Source of the DNA: Firmicutes bacterium UBA3738
GTDB taxonomy: Bacteria; Bacillota; Clostridia; Peptostreptococcales; Anaerovoracaceae
Length of the DNA stretch: 64,000 nt
NCBI GenBank assembly: GCA_002372505.1
Contig: DFGY01000062.1
Span: forward strand, 28,322-92,321
Direction: 5' to 3'
Made by a program: the position numbers and the translations under genes. Positions 7,750 through 47,883 of this stretch are shown here, piece after piece. Each line of letters opens with the position of its first letter. Within the stretch, counting starts at the first letter, position 1. A model generated the notes under the pieces. It made no database searches. It had not been told where the DNA came from and saw only the letters and a list, made by a program, of their open reading frames with translations.

Positions 7750-9079
7750 AAATCTCGACGATGTGCTTTTTCTTTTTGCCTTTTTCGACGAGGAGTTTGC
7801 CGTCTTCGAACATGTCGGTTGTGACGGTGGCTTTGCGGTCGGTGATTTTCTGGCCGCCGATGGTGACGCCGCCCTGGTCGATGGTGCGGAAGGCTTCGCT
7901 GTTGGAGTCTGCCAGACCCAGCTTGTTCAGTAGGGCTGCGACGCCGTAGCCTTCGCCTTCAAATTCGGAAGCGTCCATCTTTGTGGTGGGCATGTTTGCG
8001 CTCATGCCACCGCCGCCAAATGCAGCGCGGGCGCCTTCCTGGGCTTTTGTTGCTTCTTCTTCGCCGTGTACCAGCTTGGTTACTTCAAAGGCCAGTACTT
8101 CCTTGGCGTGATTTATTTCCTGACCTTCCAGTGCGGAGAGGCGGTTAACCTCGTCCATGGGAAGGAATGTGAGCATTCTCAGGCACTTGTTTACGTCTGC
8201 GTCCTCTACGTTTCTCCAGTACTGGTAGAAGTCGTAGGGGGTAGTCCTGGAGCCGTCCAGCCACAGTGCACCGGCCTGGGTCTTGCCCATCTTCTGGCCT
8301 GTGCTGGTTGTGAGCAGAGCCATGGTCATGCCGTATACCTGCTTCTGGCAGGCCTTACGTGTCAGCTCGACGCCGGCGATAATGTTGGACCACTGGTCGT
8401 TGCCGCCGAACTGCATCTTTATGTCGATGTCGCGGGCCATTACCATGAAGTCGTAGCCCTGCATGAGCATGTAGTTGAATTCGAAGAATGAGAGACCGTT
8501 TTCTCTCGCCATTCTCTGCTTGAATGCCTCGGCCTGAAGCATTGTGTTTACGTTAAAGTGTGTGCCGATTTCGCGGACGAATTCGACGTAGTTGAGGGGT
8601 CTGAGCCACTCTGCGTTGTTTACGGAAATGGCCATGCCCGGCTCGGGAGTTTTGTTCTCTTTGCCCGGCTGGTATACGCCATTGTTGCCTTCATACTTCC
8701 ACTCGTCGTCGAAGTCCAGGAAGCGCTCGAAGAGCTTCTTGAACTGGGCGCAGTTGTCGTCGATTGTCTGTACGTCCATAACCTGGCGCATGTCGGTTCT
8801 GCCGGAAGGGTCGCCTACCATGCCGGTGCCGCCGCCCAGAAGAACTACAGGTGTGTGGCCGTACTTCTGCATGTACATCATGATGATGATCTGCATGAAG
8901 TGTCCTACGTGAAGGCAGTCCGCTGTCGGGTCGAAGCCTATGTAGAATTTGATTTTCTCTTTTCCGAGAAGGTCTCTGATTTCCTCTTCATGGGTGCACT
9001 GCTCAATGAAGCCGCGCTCCATGAGGACGTCGAAAACGTTTTCTTTATCGCTTACGCTATCGGGAATAAAGTTTTTCAT
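7748..9079 (-). CDS. tyrS: Tyrosine--tRNA ligase
   Basis: Class I motifs HVGH (..CLHVGHFMQ..) and KMGKT (KMSKS equivalent), plus a C-terminal S4-like domain. ATG confirmed at 9077-9079. Confidence 0.93.
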   Translation of the reverse strand: MKNFIPDSVSDKENVFDVLMERGFIEQCTHEEEIRDLLGKEKIKFYIGFDPTADCLHVGHFMQIIIMMYMQKYGHTPVVLLGGGTGMVGDPSGRTDMRQVMDVQTIDDNCAQFKKLFERFLDFDDEWKYEGNNGVYQPGKENKTPEPGMAISVNNAEWLRPLNYVEFVREIGTHFNVNTMLQAEAFKQRMARENGLSFFEFNYMLMQGYDFMVMARDIDIKMQFGGNDQWSNIIAGVELTRKACQKQVYGMTMALLTTSTGQKMGKTQAGALWLDGSRTTPYDFYQYWRNVEDADVNKCLRMLTFLPMDEVNRLSALEGQEINHAKEVLAFEVTKLVHGEEEATKAQEGARAAFGGGGMSANMPTTKMDASEFEGEGYGVAALLNKLGLADSNSEAFRTIDQGGVTIGGQKITDRKATVTTDMFEDGKLLVEKGKKKKHIVEI

Positions 9080-43717: not shown

Positions 43718-44276
43718 CTTGACTTCACCGAATTCGTTTTTAAAAAAATTACTTTTCAAAGTTTGCCCCCTTATGCTTATCTCTCTTTGTACCATGCTAT
43801 TTTACACGGCTCTTCCGGATGAACAAGCCCCCCGGGGGGGTTATTGAAAGCAAAAACTCAATAGTTCAGATCTAATCTCTTCTTCCGTATCCCTTATTAT
43901 GTTCAACAGTTCCCCGGCGGAGATTCGCATGGCGCCTCTCATCCATGCATCCTGCTGTACCAGGCGGTCAGAGAAGACAACATATATTCGTCTATCTTTC
44001 TCGGCTTTCGCCATCTGCCCGATTTTCACATCAGCGAGTTCTCCTGCTGCAGTGTATATTGCATCCACGCCGGTATAGCTTTCCCTGCTGCCTTCTCCCG
44101 GCACCTTCTATCCCTTGTGATGTTATTCTAAAATTGCGATGCTTTTGAGCATATCTTCCCTTTGGCATAATCCTGTCATGAATAGCATCGAAAAATGGTA
44201 ATAGCGTGATATGAGCCGCCCGAGAAAACAGCATTCATGCAAAAAATGAATATATATTCATTACGGATTTCTGGAT

Positions 44277-44299: not shown

Positions 44300-44354
44300 G
44301 GTTAGGGAAAAACAGGGGTAATTAGGGGGTATATTATTGATTTCCGTCAAAAAG

Positions 44355-44391
44355 AAAAATCCTCGGAATGCTTGAACTTCCAAGGATTTTT
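44355..44391 (-). terminator. Terminator of tRNA-Pro
   Basis: Minus strand reads AAAAATCCTTGGAA-9 nt-TTCCGAGGATTTTT followed by CTTTTT. Confidence 0.75.
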
Positions 44392-44394
44392 TGC

Positions 44395-44471
44395 TGGTCG
44401 GAGAGACAGGATTTGAACCTGCGGCCACCTGACCCCCAGTCAGGTGCGCTACCAAACTGCGCCACTCCCCG
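44395..44471 (-). tRNA. tRNA-Pro (anticodon GGG), CCA encoded
   Basis: Folded by hand as a 77-nt cloverleaf. Acceptor CGGGGAG/CTCTCCG, D arm GCGC-AGTTTGGTA-GCGC, anticodon arm CCTGA-CTGGGGG-TCAGG, variable TGGCC, T arm GCAGG-TTCAAAT-CCTGT, then A-CCA. Confidence 0.92.
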
Positions 44472-44594
44472 GCAATTTTGGTTATTCATGTTTGCTGCGC
44501 TGATGCGTAGTCTTTTATTCGCATGTAATAGTTTAATGTATGTTCGCCCTAAAATCAATGTTTTTTTGTCTTTGTGTTGTAACCTGGTAGTCTA

Positions 44595-44984
44595 TATGGT
44601 CAAAAAAGCACAAAAAATGATAATACCGACTGCTTCTGCTTAGTTCACCTGCTTCCGTACGCTTCCATCTTCTGCTACCTTGTACATGTGGGAGTTCTTA
44701 CTGTCCTGCACCTAATGCTTTGTCGACAATTATTACTTCTTACTTCCCACGACTGCTCCGGCACCTTGAAGTTTTCACTGTACCAATACCGTTCGTCTTC
44801 GCGACGAGGGCGTGACTTTAAACTCTTCAGTCGGCACTATATTTGTGATGTTGAGCTATTCACCTGGTGGCTCCACCTCCCTTCATTCCGGAACTCCATC
44901 CTCCGGTGAATCTTCTTTTCTCTTTTCTCTATTGCTTCTTCTATATCATCGAGGGCTTGCGCCCTACGTTTAATCCTTCCTTGT
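44595..44984 (-). ncRNA. Candidate structured non-coding RNA upstream of tRNA-Pro; class undetermined and 3' end uncertain, possibly co-transcribed with the tRNA
   Basis: No minus-strand ORF of 60 aa or more between 44472 and 45090. Purine-rich on the minus strand. GNRA-capped hairpin GGGC-GCAA-GCCC (44952-44965), CGUC-GCGAA-GACG (44794-44806) and CCGGA-9 nt-UCCGG. Long-range complementarity CCGACTG/CAGTCGG. Confidence 0.35.
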
Positions 44985-44990
44985 GTGATT

Positions 44991-45019
44991 ATATTAACAC
45001 ACCAATTTGGCTATTGCAA
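44991..45019 (-). promoter_or_regulatory. Sigma-70-like promoter for the candidate ncRNA
   Basis: -35 TTGCAA (45019-45014), 17-nt spacer, -10 TAATAT (44996-44991, overlapping TATAAT at 44993-44988). Confidence 0.45.
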
Positions 45020-45090
45020 GAATTATCTGAAATTTCTTTATGTTTATTTATGTTCGAATTCTACTGTAGTGGTAGGTGATATTCTCGCGC

Positions 45091-45124
45091 AAAAAGATGA
45101 CAGGAGAACCGTCCCCTTGTCATC
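45091..45124 (-). terminator. Rho-independent terminator of the acyl-CoA synthetase gene
   Basis: Minus strand reads GATGACAAGGGGACGGTTCTCCTGTCATC followed by TTTTT. The stop TGA is the first part of the stem. Confidence 0.75.
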
Positions 45125-46889
45125 TTTTTTGTTTGGCGATTTCTTCTTTTTCCAGGACGGTGTAGGCGACTTTGCCGACGAGGGTCTGGGGGAGTTCTTT
45201 GCGGTATTCGAATTCGTAGGGCATGGCGTAGCGAGCGATGTTCTTGCGGCAGTGTTCTTCGATGTCTTTCTGTACTGCGGCTGTGGGCTCGATGCCGTCT
45301 TTAAGCACTACGAAGGCTTTGACCTTTTGCATTTTGTATTCGTCGGGGACGCCGATGACTGTGCTCATGAGGACGTTTTCGTTGGCGTCGATGACGTTCT
45401 CCAGCTGGGATGGGTAAATGGAATAGCCGGAGGATACGATCATTCTCTTCAGGCGCTGCTTGAAGTAGATGAATCCTTCCTCGTCCATGACTCCCAAGTC
45501 GCCGGTGTGTAGCCAGGTAAGGCCGTCCGGGTGCTTCTGCAGTGTGGAGGCTGTCTCCTCCGGTGCGTCCAGGTATCCCTTCATGACGGAAGGGCCGCTG
45601 ATGCAGATCTCACCTTCCTCGCCGAAGTCCACTTCCACCTTGGTACTGGGCTTGACAATTTTGTAGTATGTGTCCGGGAATGGAATCCCGATGCTGCCTA
45701 CTTTATGGTAGTCCTTGGGCGTCAGGCAGCTGGCTGTTACGCATTCCGTAAGGCCGTAGCCTTCTCTGACCTGGACGTTGGCGCCGTGAGCGTGAAGGAA
45801 GTCGTCGACTTTCTTTTTGAGTTCCACGGACAGAGAGTCGCCGCCGGAGAATACGCCCTTCAGGCAGGAAAGATCCAGGCCCTCGACTTTCTTACTACGC
45901 AGCAGAGCTTCATATAATGTAGGAACTCCTGCGATATAGTTTGGTTTCACCTGTCCCAGCAGCTTGGCGTAGGTTTCTACGCTGAACTGAGGCACCAGGT
46001 GGCACACACAGCCTGCAATGAGCATGGTGTGAATGCCGACCCCAAGGCCGAAGCCATGGAATACAGGCATAATAGAAAGCATTTTCTCACCGGCTGTAAT
46101 GATACGGCTGGCTGCCCCGGTCTGCATTCCCAGAGCGTTAAAGTTTAGGTTTGTAAGAAGGATGCCCTTCATGGTACCTGTGGTGCCGCCGCTGTAGAGA
46201 ATTGCGGCAGCCTCGCTGGCGTGCTTTGCCACGTGGTACTCCCCATGGTAAGAGCGACCCATCTCAATAAATTTTTTATACTTAACAGTCCCTGCCTCAT
46301 TGGGGACCTTCTTGATTTTACGTCCTTTTGTGAGTTTGAAGCCTAGCTTCAGAGCTCCGGTTATTTCATCGCCTATTGACGCTGCGATAATAGTTTCAAG
46401 GGCCGGAGCCGCCTCCTTAGCCTTTCTGACCTTGGGATAGAAGGCATCCAGAGTGAGGATGGCCTTGCTCTTGGAAAGGTTCAGGAAGTACTCAATTTCC
46501 TTCTCCGCAGACAGAGGGTGCACCATGTTCGAAATGGCCCCTACCATATTGATTGCGTAGAACATAATGATGGCCTGGGGAGTATTGGGCATGCAAATGG
46601 TCACCTTGTCCCCTTCATTTATGCCGATGGCCTTGAGAGCTCTGGCGCACTCTTCGATGCGGACGATGAACTCTGCGTAGGTGGCACTGGTGTTCATAAA
46701 TTCATAGGCCGTGTAATCGGAATAGTTCTCCGCGTTGCGAATGATGAGGTCTACCATAGAGCAGTCAGGATACTCCAGATGAGCCGGCACCTTTTCGTCG
46801 GCGCCGTACCAGGGAGTCCTGACCTCTGTCTGTGGTTGCTCAAGCTTTGTATTGTCTATGTGTGCAATTTTCTTCTTCTTAGTAGTCAT
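45120..46889 (-). CDS. AMP-dependent acyl-CoA synthetase/ligase (long-chain-fatty-acid--CoA ligase-like)
   Basis: AMP-binding motifs YSGGTTGTMKG and REGYGLTEC; 589 aa. Confidence 0.9.
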   Translation of the reverse strand: MTTKKKKIAHIDNTKLEQPQTEVRTPWYGADEKVPAHLEYPDCSMVDLIIRNAENYSDYTAYEFMNTSATYAEFIVRIEECARALKAIGINEGDKVTICMPNTPQAIIMFYAINMVGAISNMVHPLSAEKEIEYFLNLSKSKAILTLDAFYPKVRKAKEAAPALETIIAASIGDEITGALKLGFKLTKGRKIKKVPNEAGTVKYKKFIEMGRSYHGEYHVAKHASEAAAILYSGGTTGTMKGILLTNLNFNALGMQTGAASRIITAGEKMLSIMPVFHGFGLGVGIHTMLIAGCVCHLVPQFSVETYAKLLGQVKPNYIAGVPTLYEALLRSKKVEGLDLSCLKGVFSGGDSLSVELKKKVDDFLHAHGANVQVREGYGLTECVTASCLTPKDYHKVGSIGIPFPDTYYKIVKPSTKVEVDFGEEGEICISGPSVMKGYLDAPEETASTLQKHPDGLTWLHTGDLGVMDEEGFIYFKQRLKRMIVSSGYSIYPSQLENVIDANENVLMSTVIGVPDEYKMQKVKAFVVLKDGIEPTAAVQKDIEEHCRKNIARYAMPYEFEYRKELPQTLVGKVAYTVLEKEEIAKQKR

Positions 46890-47754
46890 ATCCCGGATCC
46901 TCCTTCACCGGAAGCTCCAGGCATTCCGGATGTTCAATATATTCCTTTAGCAATTTGACGCATCTGGCAAAGTAAAAGCCGTCAGCGATTCTTTCGTCCA
47001 GCGTAATTCCAAAGTTTACGACATCTCTGATTTCAGTCTCGCCGTCCTTGTTCAGCACCGGCGCTTTATGAATCTCACCGATAGTCACCATAATGGAAGT
47101 GGTGCCGTAGTTGTTCAGATGATGATAAGGTGCGTCGCACTTTACGCTGCCCAGGTTGGACAACATAAGGGTGGCGTAGTTGGAATCGTCCTTGGTAATG
47201 GACTCAGGCACCCAGCCGTGAAAGTCCATGATTCTGAAGGCCTGCATGAAGAGCCTCTGGCCGAAGCGTGGCAGCTTCATGTAGAAGTCAAAGGCGGAAT
47301 CAATTCCTACAGGCTTGCCGTCTCTGAGATCGCTGGCGTCGCCGATAATGGTCTTGCATGTGTCATTCAAAGTCTGATTTTCATCTATGGGCATGACCAG
47401 GAGCAGCTCCTCGGACTTGTCCTCGAACTTGCGCCTTACCACGAAGGCCATGGTGATTTCGTTTCTGTCGTAAATCCTCCGTCCCTGAATGAATCTGTTG
47501 AGCAGCGGTCTGTGGTAGATCAGCTTGCCCAGGGCGTGGACAAAAAGATGGAAGGGGGTCATCTTAAACTCAGCACCCTCTCCATTGTGTTCTTCTACGT
47601 ATTTCAACACATTGGTAACATCGAACTGTTCCTGGATATATACCTCTGCGTCGCATCTGTTGGGGAATAGATTAGTCATTATGGCATGGAGTCCGTCTAT
47701 GTCACGGACACGCGTACCGTCCTTTCGGTCACCCCACCTTTTCTTCTTCTTCAT
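46879..47754 (-). CDS. 2-oxoacid dehydrogenase E2-type acyltransferase catalytic-domain-like protein
   Basis: The C-terminal ITLDERIADG aligns to the E2/CAT DHRxxDG motif, with Glu in place of His. The ATG at 47754 with RBS AGGAAGGAAAG is preferred over the TTG at 47799. Overlaps the downstream ligase gene by 11 nt. Confidence 0.7.
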   Translation of the reverse strand: MKKKKRWGDRKDGTRVRDIDGLHAIMTNLFPNRCDAEVYIQEQFDVTNVLKYVEEHNGEGAEFKMTPFHLFVHALGKLIYHRPLLNRFIQGRRIYDRNEITMAFVVRRKFEDKSEELLLVMPIDENQTLNDTCKTIIGDASDLRDGKPVGIDSAFDFYMKLPRFGQRLFMQAFRIMDFHGWVPESITKDDSNYATLMLSNLGSVKCDAPYHHLNNYGTTSIMVTIGEIHKAPVLNKDGETEIRDVVNFGITLDERIADGFYFARCVKLLKEYIEHPECLELPVKEDPGYDY

Positions 47755-47883
47755 TTTGATTGTTCTTTCCTTCCTAAAAGCTGTCGAAAATCTTTCCAAG
47801 ATATATTATCAATGAACACAAGGAAATACAAGTGTAGTTTTTTTCCTTTGTACATACTGCCCTCCCCGTGATATAATGTCTGC

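Follow-up and report, generated by a model that had tools for sequence, protein, structure and literature searches.

Does the purine-rich interval between an acyl-CoA synthetase gene and a tRNA-Pro gene of Firmicutes bacterium UBA3738 (Anaerovoracaceae) encode an RNA of its own and, if so, of what kind? The question goes back to a first-pass annotation of a 64,000-nucleotide stretch of contig DFGY01000062.1 (positions 28,322 to 92,321; hereafter, the window), in which a region of about 500 nt, purine-rich and free of open reading frames (ORFs), was singled out as a candidate large noncoding RNA (ncRNA) with its own promoter. Our analysis supports this candidate: the minus strand of the window at 44602-45030 very probably is a free-standing gene for a ~380-nt ncRNA that belongs to an uncatalogued family of gut Anaerovoracaceae (Clostridia) and, as we infer, acts in trans as a folded scaffold. 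The unit is kept from the promoter to the U-run in about six lineages, displays compensatory changes and carries no coding signature. All positions below are those of the window.

The predicted RNA gene and its boundaries

The minus strand at 44602-45030 contains no conserved ORF and consists of 64% purines (in the core 400 nt, A142 G112 T78 C68, again ~64% purine). As originally noticed, no minus-strand ORF of at least 60 aa lies wholly inside the interval between the terminator of the synthetase gene and the tRNA gene; the sole longer minus-strand ORF (44334-44558, 74 aa) passes through the tRNA gene. Read in the direction of transcription, the interval and its borders include the following elements.

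45120-46889, minus strand: acyl-CoA synthetase gene (Pfam AMP-binding and AMP-binding_C), the upstream neighbor
45099-45117, minus strand: terminator-like hairpin of the acyl-CoA synthetase gene, found by the terminator scan; upstream limit of the RNA unit
45020-45030, minus strand: conserved motif TCAGATAATTC, abutting the -35 hexamer; family consensus TCAGAAAAYTC
44988-45019, minus strand: sigma-A-type promoter, with -35 TTGCAA (45019-45014), a 17-nt spacer, -10 TAATAT (44996-44991) and TGT before the -10
44988-44993, minus strand: alternative -10 TATAAT, with a 20-nt spacer from the same -35
44602-44985 (approximate), minus strand: predicted ncRNA transcript of ~380 nt, with ends derived from the promoter and the U-runs
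44602-44617, minus strand: two U-runs (UUUUUU GUGC UUUUUU; 44617-44612 and 44607-44602) directly 3' of the closing helix; putative transcript end
44472-44601, minus strand: spacer with a promoter-like tRNA site, the last 130 nt before the tRNA; outside the RNA
44530-44558, minus strand: promoter-like tRNA site TTGATT-17-TAAACT, read by eye and weaker than the sites of the homologs
44395-44471, minus strand: tRNA-Pro (GGG), identified by ARAGORN and the Rfam tRNA model (63.8 bits); downstream neighbor, outside the RNA

The promoter that had been read as TTGCAA-17-TAATAT is indeed present at 45019-44991, and the relatives retain a homologous TTGCAA-17-TATAAT with an upstream TG, which matches the consensus in 10 of 12 positions by scan (L090, L087, L100). 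The window version is slightly degraded, with 8 of 12 matches, which is below the scan threshold, so that it is not listed by the scan. Altogether, the arrangement TCAGAAAAYTC-TTGCAA-17 nt-TATAAT with the TG is conserved in 11 of 11 copies of the RNA. Across these aligned copies, a single position of the upstream motif differs (T in the window for A), and one Y position is occupied by either C or T. The 17-mer TCAGAAAAYTCTTGCAA, which combines this motif with the -35 hexamer, is unique to this RNA among the 128 loci collected in this work and occurs only once in the window, with 1 mismatch. A sigma-54 reading of the TTGCA motif was rejected: by eye, no GG element is found at -24, and the distance to a good -10 hexamer is 17 nt.

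At the other end, all copies of the RNA terminate with the 3' strand of a long-range helix (…UCGGUAUUAUC) that is immediately followed by a U-run. An extra canonical terminator is found 15 nt beyond the U-run in L100; its hairpin is shared by the close relatives of this locus, L101 and L119, and a different one is seen in L087 (by eye). Furthermore, the scan detects a separate promoter-like site between the RNA end and the tRNA in L090 (TTGACA-17-TAAACT, 10 of 12 matches), L087 and L100. The first-pass annotation reported no strong terminator before the tRNA gene and considered co-transcription possible. Given that the arrangement of helix and U-run is conserved in every homolog, obligatory co-transcription with the tRNA appears unlikely, and the tRNA is preceded by a promoter-like site of its own. 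The conserved promoter and the helix/U-run end, signals typical of a free-standing ncRNA gene, together with the separate tRNA site indicate that the RNA is ~380 nt long (about 44985-44602) and most likely is its own transcription unit rather than a tRNA leader. Thus, the structured region of ~500 nt perceived at the outset is real, but its final 130 nt are spacer.

Homologs and phyletic distribution

Identity is 100% for contigs of the same species and only ~70% for the nearest relatives of the acyl-CoA synthetase. Synteny via this enzyme, with one genome per GTDB species (80 loci, ≤66% identity), revealed no similar intergenic sequence, when the loci were compared using blastn, nhmmer, nhmmer --max and a covariance model of the long arm of the RNA. 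Among the loci of closer synthetase homologs, P0002, P0006, P0011 and P0015 have different downstream genes and lack a copy of the RNA. In the two closest relatives (P0003 and P0004), nhmmer with the window sequence alone detects collinear matches of ~450 nt (E = 1e-6 and 3e-4), on the same strand and located slightly farther downstream, after a DUF134/NifX-like gene pair and just 5' of a tRNA-Lys(CTT) gene. Five further contig groups were obtained with the NifX-like protein as the synteny anchor. A profile search then identified full-length copies in L087, L090, L100, L101, L119, L118, L112, L113, L114/L117 and L111 (E-values of 1e-55 to 1e-111), as well as copies cut off by contig ends in L106-L110. 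In every case, the homologous copy has the same orientation as the genes upstream of it, and the length of the RNA is about 347-394 nt across the family.

The window RNA matches the family profile of nhmmer at 44988-44608 (E = 5e-55) and is the most divergent member (185.7 bits, compared to 214-372 bits for the others). No second copy was found within the 64 kb of the window, and by both the profile and the arm model, the RNA is absent from the remaining loci of the set of 128. Beyond this set, the pattern AGTGAAAACTT-N(118-148)-TCGGTATTATC retrieved from the JGI metagenomes only two chance matches, which are non-homologous; pattern scans of the IMG/VR viral contigs gave no match, and neither did a blastn comparison of the copies from the window and L087 with phage and plasmid collections. 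The family thus seems to be narrow, encompassing about six lineages of gut Anaerovoracaceae.

The protein clusters group L087, L100, L101 and L119 with Hominibacterium faecale and Ihubacter massiliensis, cultured Anaerovoracaceae (Peptostreptococcales, Clostridia). Because the flanking proteins share 90% clusters with proteins of these two species, cultured carriers of the RNA are likely to exist, and in such carriers, expression analysis, knock-out, partner pull-down and structural work would be directly feasible.

In the species of L111, the RNA gene could be duplicated in tandem, as suggested by a second RNA-specific promoter, TATCAGAAAACTCTTGCAA-17-TATAA, located ~100 nt past the first RNA copy at the contig end (L111:1748-1816), together with the fact that five other contigs of this species (L106-L110) all break at RNA position ~125. 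In L084, which represents the P0002 species, the next-closest relative, the RNA is absent at the locus; a tandem repeat with a 30-nt unit (3.8 copies, 79% matches) is present at L084:8426-8540, 5' of a tRNA-Pro(GGG) gene at 9001-9077 that is followed by a phage-type integrase gene.

Secondary structure and evidence for maintained folding

The consensus fold was derived with RNAalifold from the 11 transcripts of alignment A5, which come from about six lineages, some of the sequences being closely related (the long arm is represented by 8 distinct rows). It comprises a variable, hairpin-bearing 5' region, an invariant GGUG…CACC hairpin and a 3' domain closed by a 16-bp helix. The first ~110 nt of the RNA are sequence-variable hairpins, and the ~230-nt conserved 3' domain, enclosed by the closing helix, holds, in addition to two arms, one short and the other long and irregular, a CAC/GUG clamp of 3 bp. 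Loops and junctions are where the invariant nucleotides concentrate (CCACCAGAA, AAAGGUG and the internal loop GAAA / GUAAAGACGGAA), and the most conserved nucleotides, which are purine-rich, lie in the internal loops of the long arm. The structural elements of the window RNA are listed below.

44950-44968, minus strand: 5' hairpin CG-AGGGC-GCAA-GCCCU-CG with a GNRA loop (core GGGC-GCAA-GCCC, 44964-44953)
44882-44910, minus strand: second hairpin of the 5' domain, UUCA-CCGGAG...UUCCGG-UGAA (CCGGA...UCCGG, 44906-44888)
44866-44877, minus strand: hairpin GGUG-GAGC-CACC, followed by an invariant AG (family GGUGAGUCCACCAG; GUG/CAC and CCACCAG invariant in 11 of 11 copies)
44828-44840, minus strand: 5' strand of the long-range closing helix, AUAGUGCCGACUG, pairing with 44632-44620
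44620-44632, minus strand: 3' partner strand of the closing helix, CAGUCGGUAUUAU, with GGUAUUAU invariant throughout the family
44788-44815, minus strand: UCAC, which pairs with GUGA (44648-44645), and the short arm GCC-[CGUC-GCGAA-GACG]-GGU (CGUC-GCGAA-GACG, 44806-44794)
44657-44783, minus strand: long irregular arm, from the unconstrained minimum free energy (MFE) structure of the window RNA
44783-44780 with 44660-44657, minus strand: long-arm helix GUAC/GUAC, from the MFE structure
44764-44761 with 44685-44682, minus strand: long-arm helix GUGC/GUAC, from the MFE structure
44750-44745 with 44693-44688, minus strand: long-arm helix GUGGGA/UCCCAC, from the MFE structure
44708-44718, minus strand: apical hairpin of the long arm, GCAU/GUGC, from the MFE structure

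All helices that had been picked out in the first reading of the sequence are found within 1 nt of the positions given there, and its long-range complements CCGACUG/CAGUCGG (44834-44828 and 44632-44626) fall inside the closing helix. This helix spans 13 bp in the window and 16 pairs in the family, with 99.4% of the alignment cells paired; both sides are changed in 3 of its pairs and a single side in 6. A hairpin is present at the position of the 5' hairpin in every lineage, with a different sequence in each, and the second hairpin of the 5' domain has equivalents in the homologs (helices 1-2, 86-89% of cells paired). The pairing of the GGUG-GAGC-CACC hairpin itself is without covariation support as a consequence of its invariance. 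The family equivalents of the short arm are helices 5-7, and in helix 6, 4 pairs are changed on both sides; the short arm of the window is shortened by a 19-nt deletion relative to the family. A ~40-nt linker that is almost entirely A/G, GAUGAUAUAGAAGAAGCAAUAGAGAAAAGAGAAAAGAAGA (44911-44949, minus strand) is specific to the window lineage, with the relatives carrying a structured hairpin instead; in the full-length MFE structure, this linker pairs with the U-rich 3' tail.

The RNAalifold structure includes 62 pairs, with 94.6% of the cells forming a standard pair and 13 pairs changed on both sides, a value that was reached in 0 of 500 shuffles; in controls with slid strands, only 35-48% of the cells are paired and 2-7 pairs are changed on both sides. 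An alternative, long-arm topology includes 63 pairs, 15 of these changed on both sides, with 4 versus 1 double changes in the switched helix (slid controls overall, 35-50% of cells paired). The structure thus appears to be kept by compensatory substitutions, as assessed on few sequences and with a structure taken from the same alignment. Conservation and covariation among homologs had been proposed as a check on the initial prediction; in these comparisons, pairing is kept, with 13-15 pairs changed on both sides and none of the 500 shuffles performing as well.

The unconstrained MFE structure of the window RNA recovers the family helices, and it is the alternative, long-arm topology that is found in this manner for the window, L090, L118 and L111. 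Furthermore, covariance model R1, which represents the long arm alone (127 positions, 28 pairs), recognizes each of the 11 copies, with E-values from 1e-13 to 2e-32, and no other locus; the window copy scores 69.8 bits (E = 1e-13). In the alignment fitted to R1, 86% of the cells are paired and 9 of the 28 pairs are changed on both sides, compared to 29-45% of cells paired in the slid controls.

Folding is also biased toward the RNA strand. The MFE z-score is -2.85 for 44590-44990 (RNA strand versus shuffled sequences), and for 44607-44989, it is -3.15 for the sense strand versus -1.10 for the antisense strand. In six lineages, the sense z-scores range from -3.2 to -5.7, and in 5 of the 6 they are stronger than the antisense value. 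Many of the G-U pairs in the fold correspond to A-C mismatches on the opposite strand.

The part of the long arm in which the two topologies differ deserves a separate description. For the UAAAGU sequence (A5 columns 250-255), two copies of ACUUUA are available as pairing partners, which results in mutually exclusive topologies, that is, either a GAAA-capped hairpin along with a second hairpin or a single long arm. The switch region encompasses A5 columns 250-265 and 353-376, corresponding to about 44783-44767 and 44680-44657 of the window. Both alternative partners mirror a C-G change seen in the L112 group, so that a conformational switch between the two arm topologies appears possible within this structural model.

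Coding potential

An alternative that the conservation as such would accommodate is that the region codes for a small protein, or represents a decayed protein gene or a dual-function RNA, so that coding constraint would account for the sequence similarity. We consider this very unlikely. Five lineages other than that of the window possess ORFs of 43-56 aa, all overlapping one and the same portion of the 3' domain, with some of the encoded peptides sharing K(V/A)K(T/A)LGTEV, and antisense ORFs of 73-97 aa are present in the window, L112 and L111. However, the length of the longest sense ORFs (29-56 aa) is that expected for the purine-rich composition (p = 0.2-0.8), and the start codons and N-terminal frames differ among lineages, with another frame used in L111. 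In the window, stop codons in the frame of the relatives' ORF leave 12 codons, and no Shine-Dalgarno sequence is seen by eye before the starts of the relatives' ORFs. Substitutions show no 3-nt periodicity on either strand (p = 0.21-0.98), and the compensatory changes fit the RNA helices. Most indels are not multiples of 3, and within the relatives' ORF, indels of 1-2 nt cause frameshifts. No conserved reading frame was detected, and the small-protein reading was rejected given the chance-length ORFs, the broken frames and the lack of 3-nt periodicity.

Comparison with known RNA families

The search with the Rfam models that had been proposed along with the initial prediction gave no credible family match. 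At the gathering thresholds of Rfam 15, tRNA is the sole match in the whole 64-kb window. At E ≤ 10 with permissive filters, the window, L090 and L087 copies yield only chance-level hits that are inconsistent between the members (for example, RAGATH-17 with 22 bits against a cut-off of 102 bits and group-II-D1D4-3 with E = 1.1), and ROOL, GOLLD, OLE, raiA, HEARO, 6S, RNase P, tmRNA and SRP are absent from the lists for all three copies. An ARAGORN search for tmRNA was negative as well. The suggestion that the RNA could belong to the ROOL or GOLLD class is therefore not borne out.

The extent of the resemblance to these classes is nevertheless instructive. ROOL and GOLLD are frequent in prophages, and ROOL is spread over several phyla. 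For the RNA described here, neither a prophage context nor a match in the phage and viral collections was seen, and it is confined to one bacterial family. It shares with ROOL the character of a stand-alone, ORF-free multi-helix RNA that is found beside a tRNA gene in gut or rumen Firmicutes, the function of ROOL being likewise unknown (PMC5737381). However, ROOL is 581 nt long, with six junctions and three pseudoknots (PMC5737381), compared to ~347-394 nt, one main junction and no supported pseudoknot in the present case, and the covariance model of ROOL does not match at its threshold. GOLLD, also a large bacterial RNA reported, like ROOL, near tRNA genes, is larger and more complex than ROOL (PMC5737381). 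Unlike GOLLD, the ~380-nt RNA is chromosomal, roughly half the size of ROOL and devoid of a model match. The adjacency to tRNA genes, observed in four lineages, is a feature of context and does not define a family.

By kind, the RNA resembles raiA and OLE, two abundant Firmicutes RNAs with at most partly known roles, in being free-standing, a few hundred nucleotides long, present in anaerobic Firmicutes and endowed with conserved nucleotides in loops and junctions. The raiA motif RNA is reported to be abundant (PMC12968392). The strong promoter suggests high expression of the present RNA, too, but it differs from raiA and OLE in the lack of a model match and of a raiA, OapA or similar partner gene nearby, and in its much narrower range. 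With the housekeeping RNAs (RNase P, 6S, tmRNA, SRP), it shares a strong consensus promoter, a terminal long helix near the 3' end, the purine-rich composition and the location among tRNA genes. Its closing helix, however, joins the middle of the molecule, rather than the 5' end, to the 3' end, and it lacks what we take to be the universal sequence blocks of these RNAs. None of the models of OLE, raiA, HEARO, 6S, RNase P, tmRNA and SRP assigns it to the respective family.

Could the models have missed a very divergent member of one of these large families? The tRNA-side context resembles that of ROOL and GOLLD (PMC5737381), and the size class together with the strong promoter resembles the stable housekeeping RNAs. 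Nevertheless, with none of the families found at E ≤ 10 under permissive filters in three divergent members, and with ~380 nt and one main junction being a misfit to ROOL and the still larger GOLLD (PMC5737381), such membership appears extremely improbable. Literal sequence strings of the family were found neither in the text of 8 million papers nor in the first 200 of the 408 supplementary files of a human-microbiome catalogue of structured RNAs (PMC8040213), and a prior unnamed listing may exist. We rate the RNA, on the sequence evidence, as a new family within a known kind, the large free-standing structured bacterial RNAs without a known function. Its closest analogs are ROOL and GOLLD by context, and raiA and OLE by kind.

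Relationship with the adjacent tRNA gene

As the first-pass annotation noticed, the RNA is adjacent to a tRNA gene, and this adjacency extends to four lineages, all of those for which sequence is available: the tRNA is tRNA-Pro(GGG) in the window (44471-44395) and tRNA-Lys(CTT) in the other three (L090:7157-7232, L087:8112-8187, L100:4205-4280). The adjacency of the RNA and a tRNA thus survives a change of the tRNA identity. In L111, the next element downstream is the second copy of the RNA promoter. The upstream neighbor varies as well, being the acyl-CoA synthetase gene in the window, the DUF134-NifX pair in most of the relatives and a Mem_trans insertion in the L112 group; no DUF134 or NifX genes are present in the 64 kb of the window.

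This context could point to a cis-acting leader or attenuator, in which a ligand- or tRNA-sensing domain would control the P1-like closing helix/terminator and, through it, read-through into the tRNA. Such a device would be in line with the architecture of the RNA: a multi-helix domain lies within the closing helix and a U-run comes directly after this helix, as in a riboswitch platform. The tRNA and the RNA share their orientation in the four lineages, and the two alternative pairings of UAAAGU with the copies of ACUUUA would provide a possible switch. However, a 13-16-bp helix would require no ligand to form, the downstream tRNAs have promoter-like sites of their own (by scan in three homologs, by eye in the window), and one group possesses a second canonical terminator before the tRNA. 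Neither the tRNA identity, Pro or Lys, nor even the presence of a tRNA as the next element, as in L111, is constant. No riboswitch or T-box model matches the RNA, and we are not aware of any precedent for tRNA-gene regulation by such leaders. Altogether, a leader function seems unlikely. Given that both the upstream and the downstream neighbors vary, the RNA does not appear to be cis-regulatory, and because it remains constant while its neighbors change, we favor a product that would act in trans.

Proposed role of the RNA

We propose that transcription would begin at the strong sigma-A-type promoter bearing the family-specific upstream motif and end at the 13-16-bp long-range helix followed by the U-runs. 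The resulting stable RNA would then act in trans as a folded scaffold, recognized via its conserved loops by a partner that most likely would be a protein and possibly could be other copies of the RNA itself. By analogy with other large RNAs, a trans-acting scaffold is favored because of the strong promoter, the terminal long helix, the ~380-nt multi-helix fold and the invariant loops and junctions. A cis-attenuator, a base-pairing (antisense) small RNA (sRNA) and a CsrA-type sponge fit less well; for the sponge, the number of GGA sequences is about that predicted from the purine-rich composition, with few GGA conserved across lineages (by eye), and this possibility was dropped as unsupported.

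Several points weigh against this interpretation. The scaffold mechanism draws on analogy, namely the size, the multi-helix fold and the conserved loops, and the RNA is not linked to any candidate partner gene. Transcription of the RNA, the transcript ends and the stability are inferred from sequence signals. The termination signal is unusual, with the helix strands ~200 nt apart, and the consensus scan for a classical terminator was negative in the window, L090 and L087. With respect to the fold, the 11 sequences are few and the structures were derived from the very alignments used for the pair counts, which makes the statistics partly circular; several of the most conserved helices are invariant and hence uninformative on pairing; the two long-arm topologies fit about equally well; and helix Px is weak, with 75% of cells paired in the R1-fitted alignment.

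Bacterial ncRNAs longer than ~300 nt with conserved multi-helix folds are rare, and past cases turned out to be ribozymes, ribonucleoprotein cores and, recently, self-assembling RNA cages; RNA-only assemblies have been demonstrated for ROOL, GOLLD and OLE. We tentatively entertain, as a possibility with considerably less than an even chance, that the RNA is the founding member of an Anaerovoracaceae-specific class of large, complex-folded RNAs that would function, through the purine-rich conserved loops and the long closing helix, as a ribonucleoprotein core, a ribozyme or an RNA-only assembly, rather than as an ordinary regulatory sRNA. It would also make a third unrelated case of a large RNA gene beside tRNA genes, which should render this recurring association easier to study. 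If the RNA is only a lineage-specific sRNA, the gain would be modest, in the form of a better annotation of gut Clostridia.

Genomic neighborhood

The neighborhood downstream of the acyl-CoA synthetase gene is variable, integrase genes or genes of the integrative and conjugative element type follow the tRNA in relatives, and a truncated YacP-like gene follows it in the window. These features would be compatible with a conserved DNA element or with the remains of a mobile element at a tRNA integration hotspot, as opposed to a functional transcript. We deem this very improbable: the RNA element is located 5' of the tRNA, on its chromosomal side, remains associated with the upstream chromosomal genes in the different lineages and has no similarity in the phage, plasmid and viral collections, and it keeps its promoter, the U-run and strand-specific G-U pairing.

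The YacP-like sequence itself is an 87-aa ORF just 3' of tRNA-Pro (43841-44104, minus strand), which matches only positions 61-138 of the 166 positions of NYN_YacP (E = 4.5e-13) and thus represents a truncated fragment of a YacP/Rae1-like gene at the tRNA junction. This truncation hints at a past rearrangement at the junction. On the other side of the RNA gene, a 2-oxoacid dehydrogenase acyltransferase-like gene (46879-47799, minus strand) shares 11 nt with the beginning of the acyl-CoA synthetase gene (45120-46889). These two genes and the divergent PBP and FtsW/FHA genes make up the left flank that is conserved in most of the closer relatives examined.

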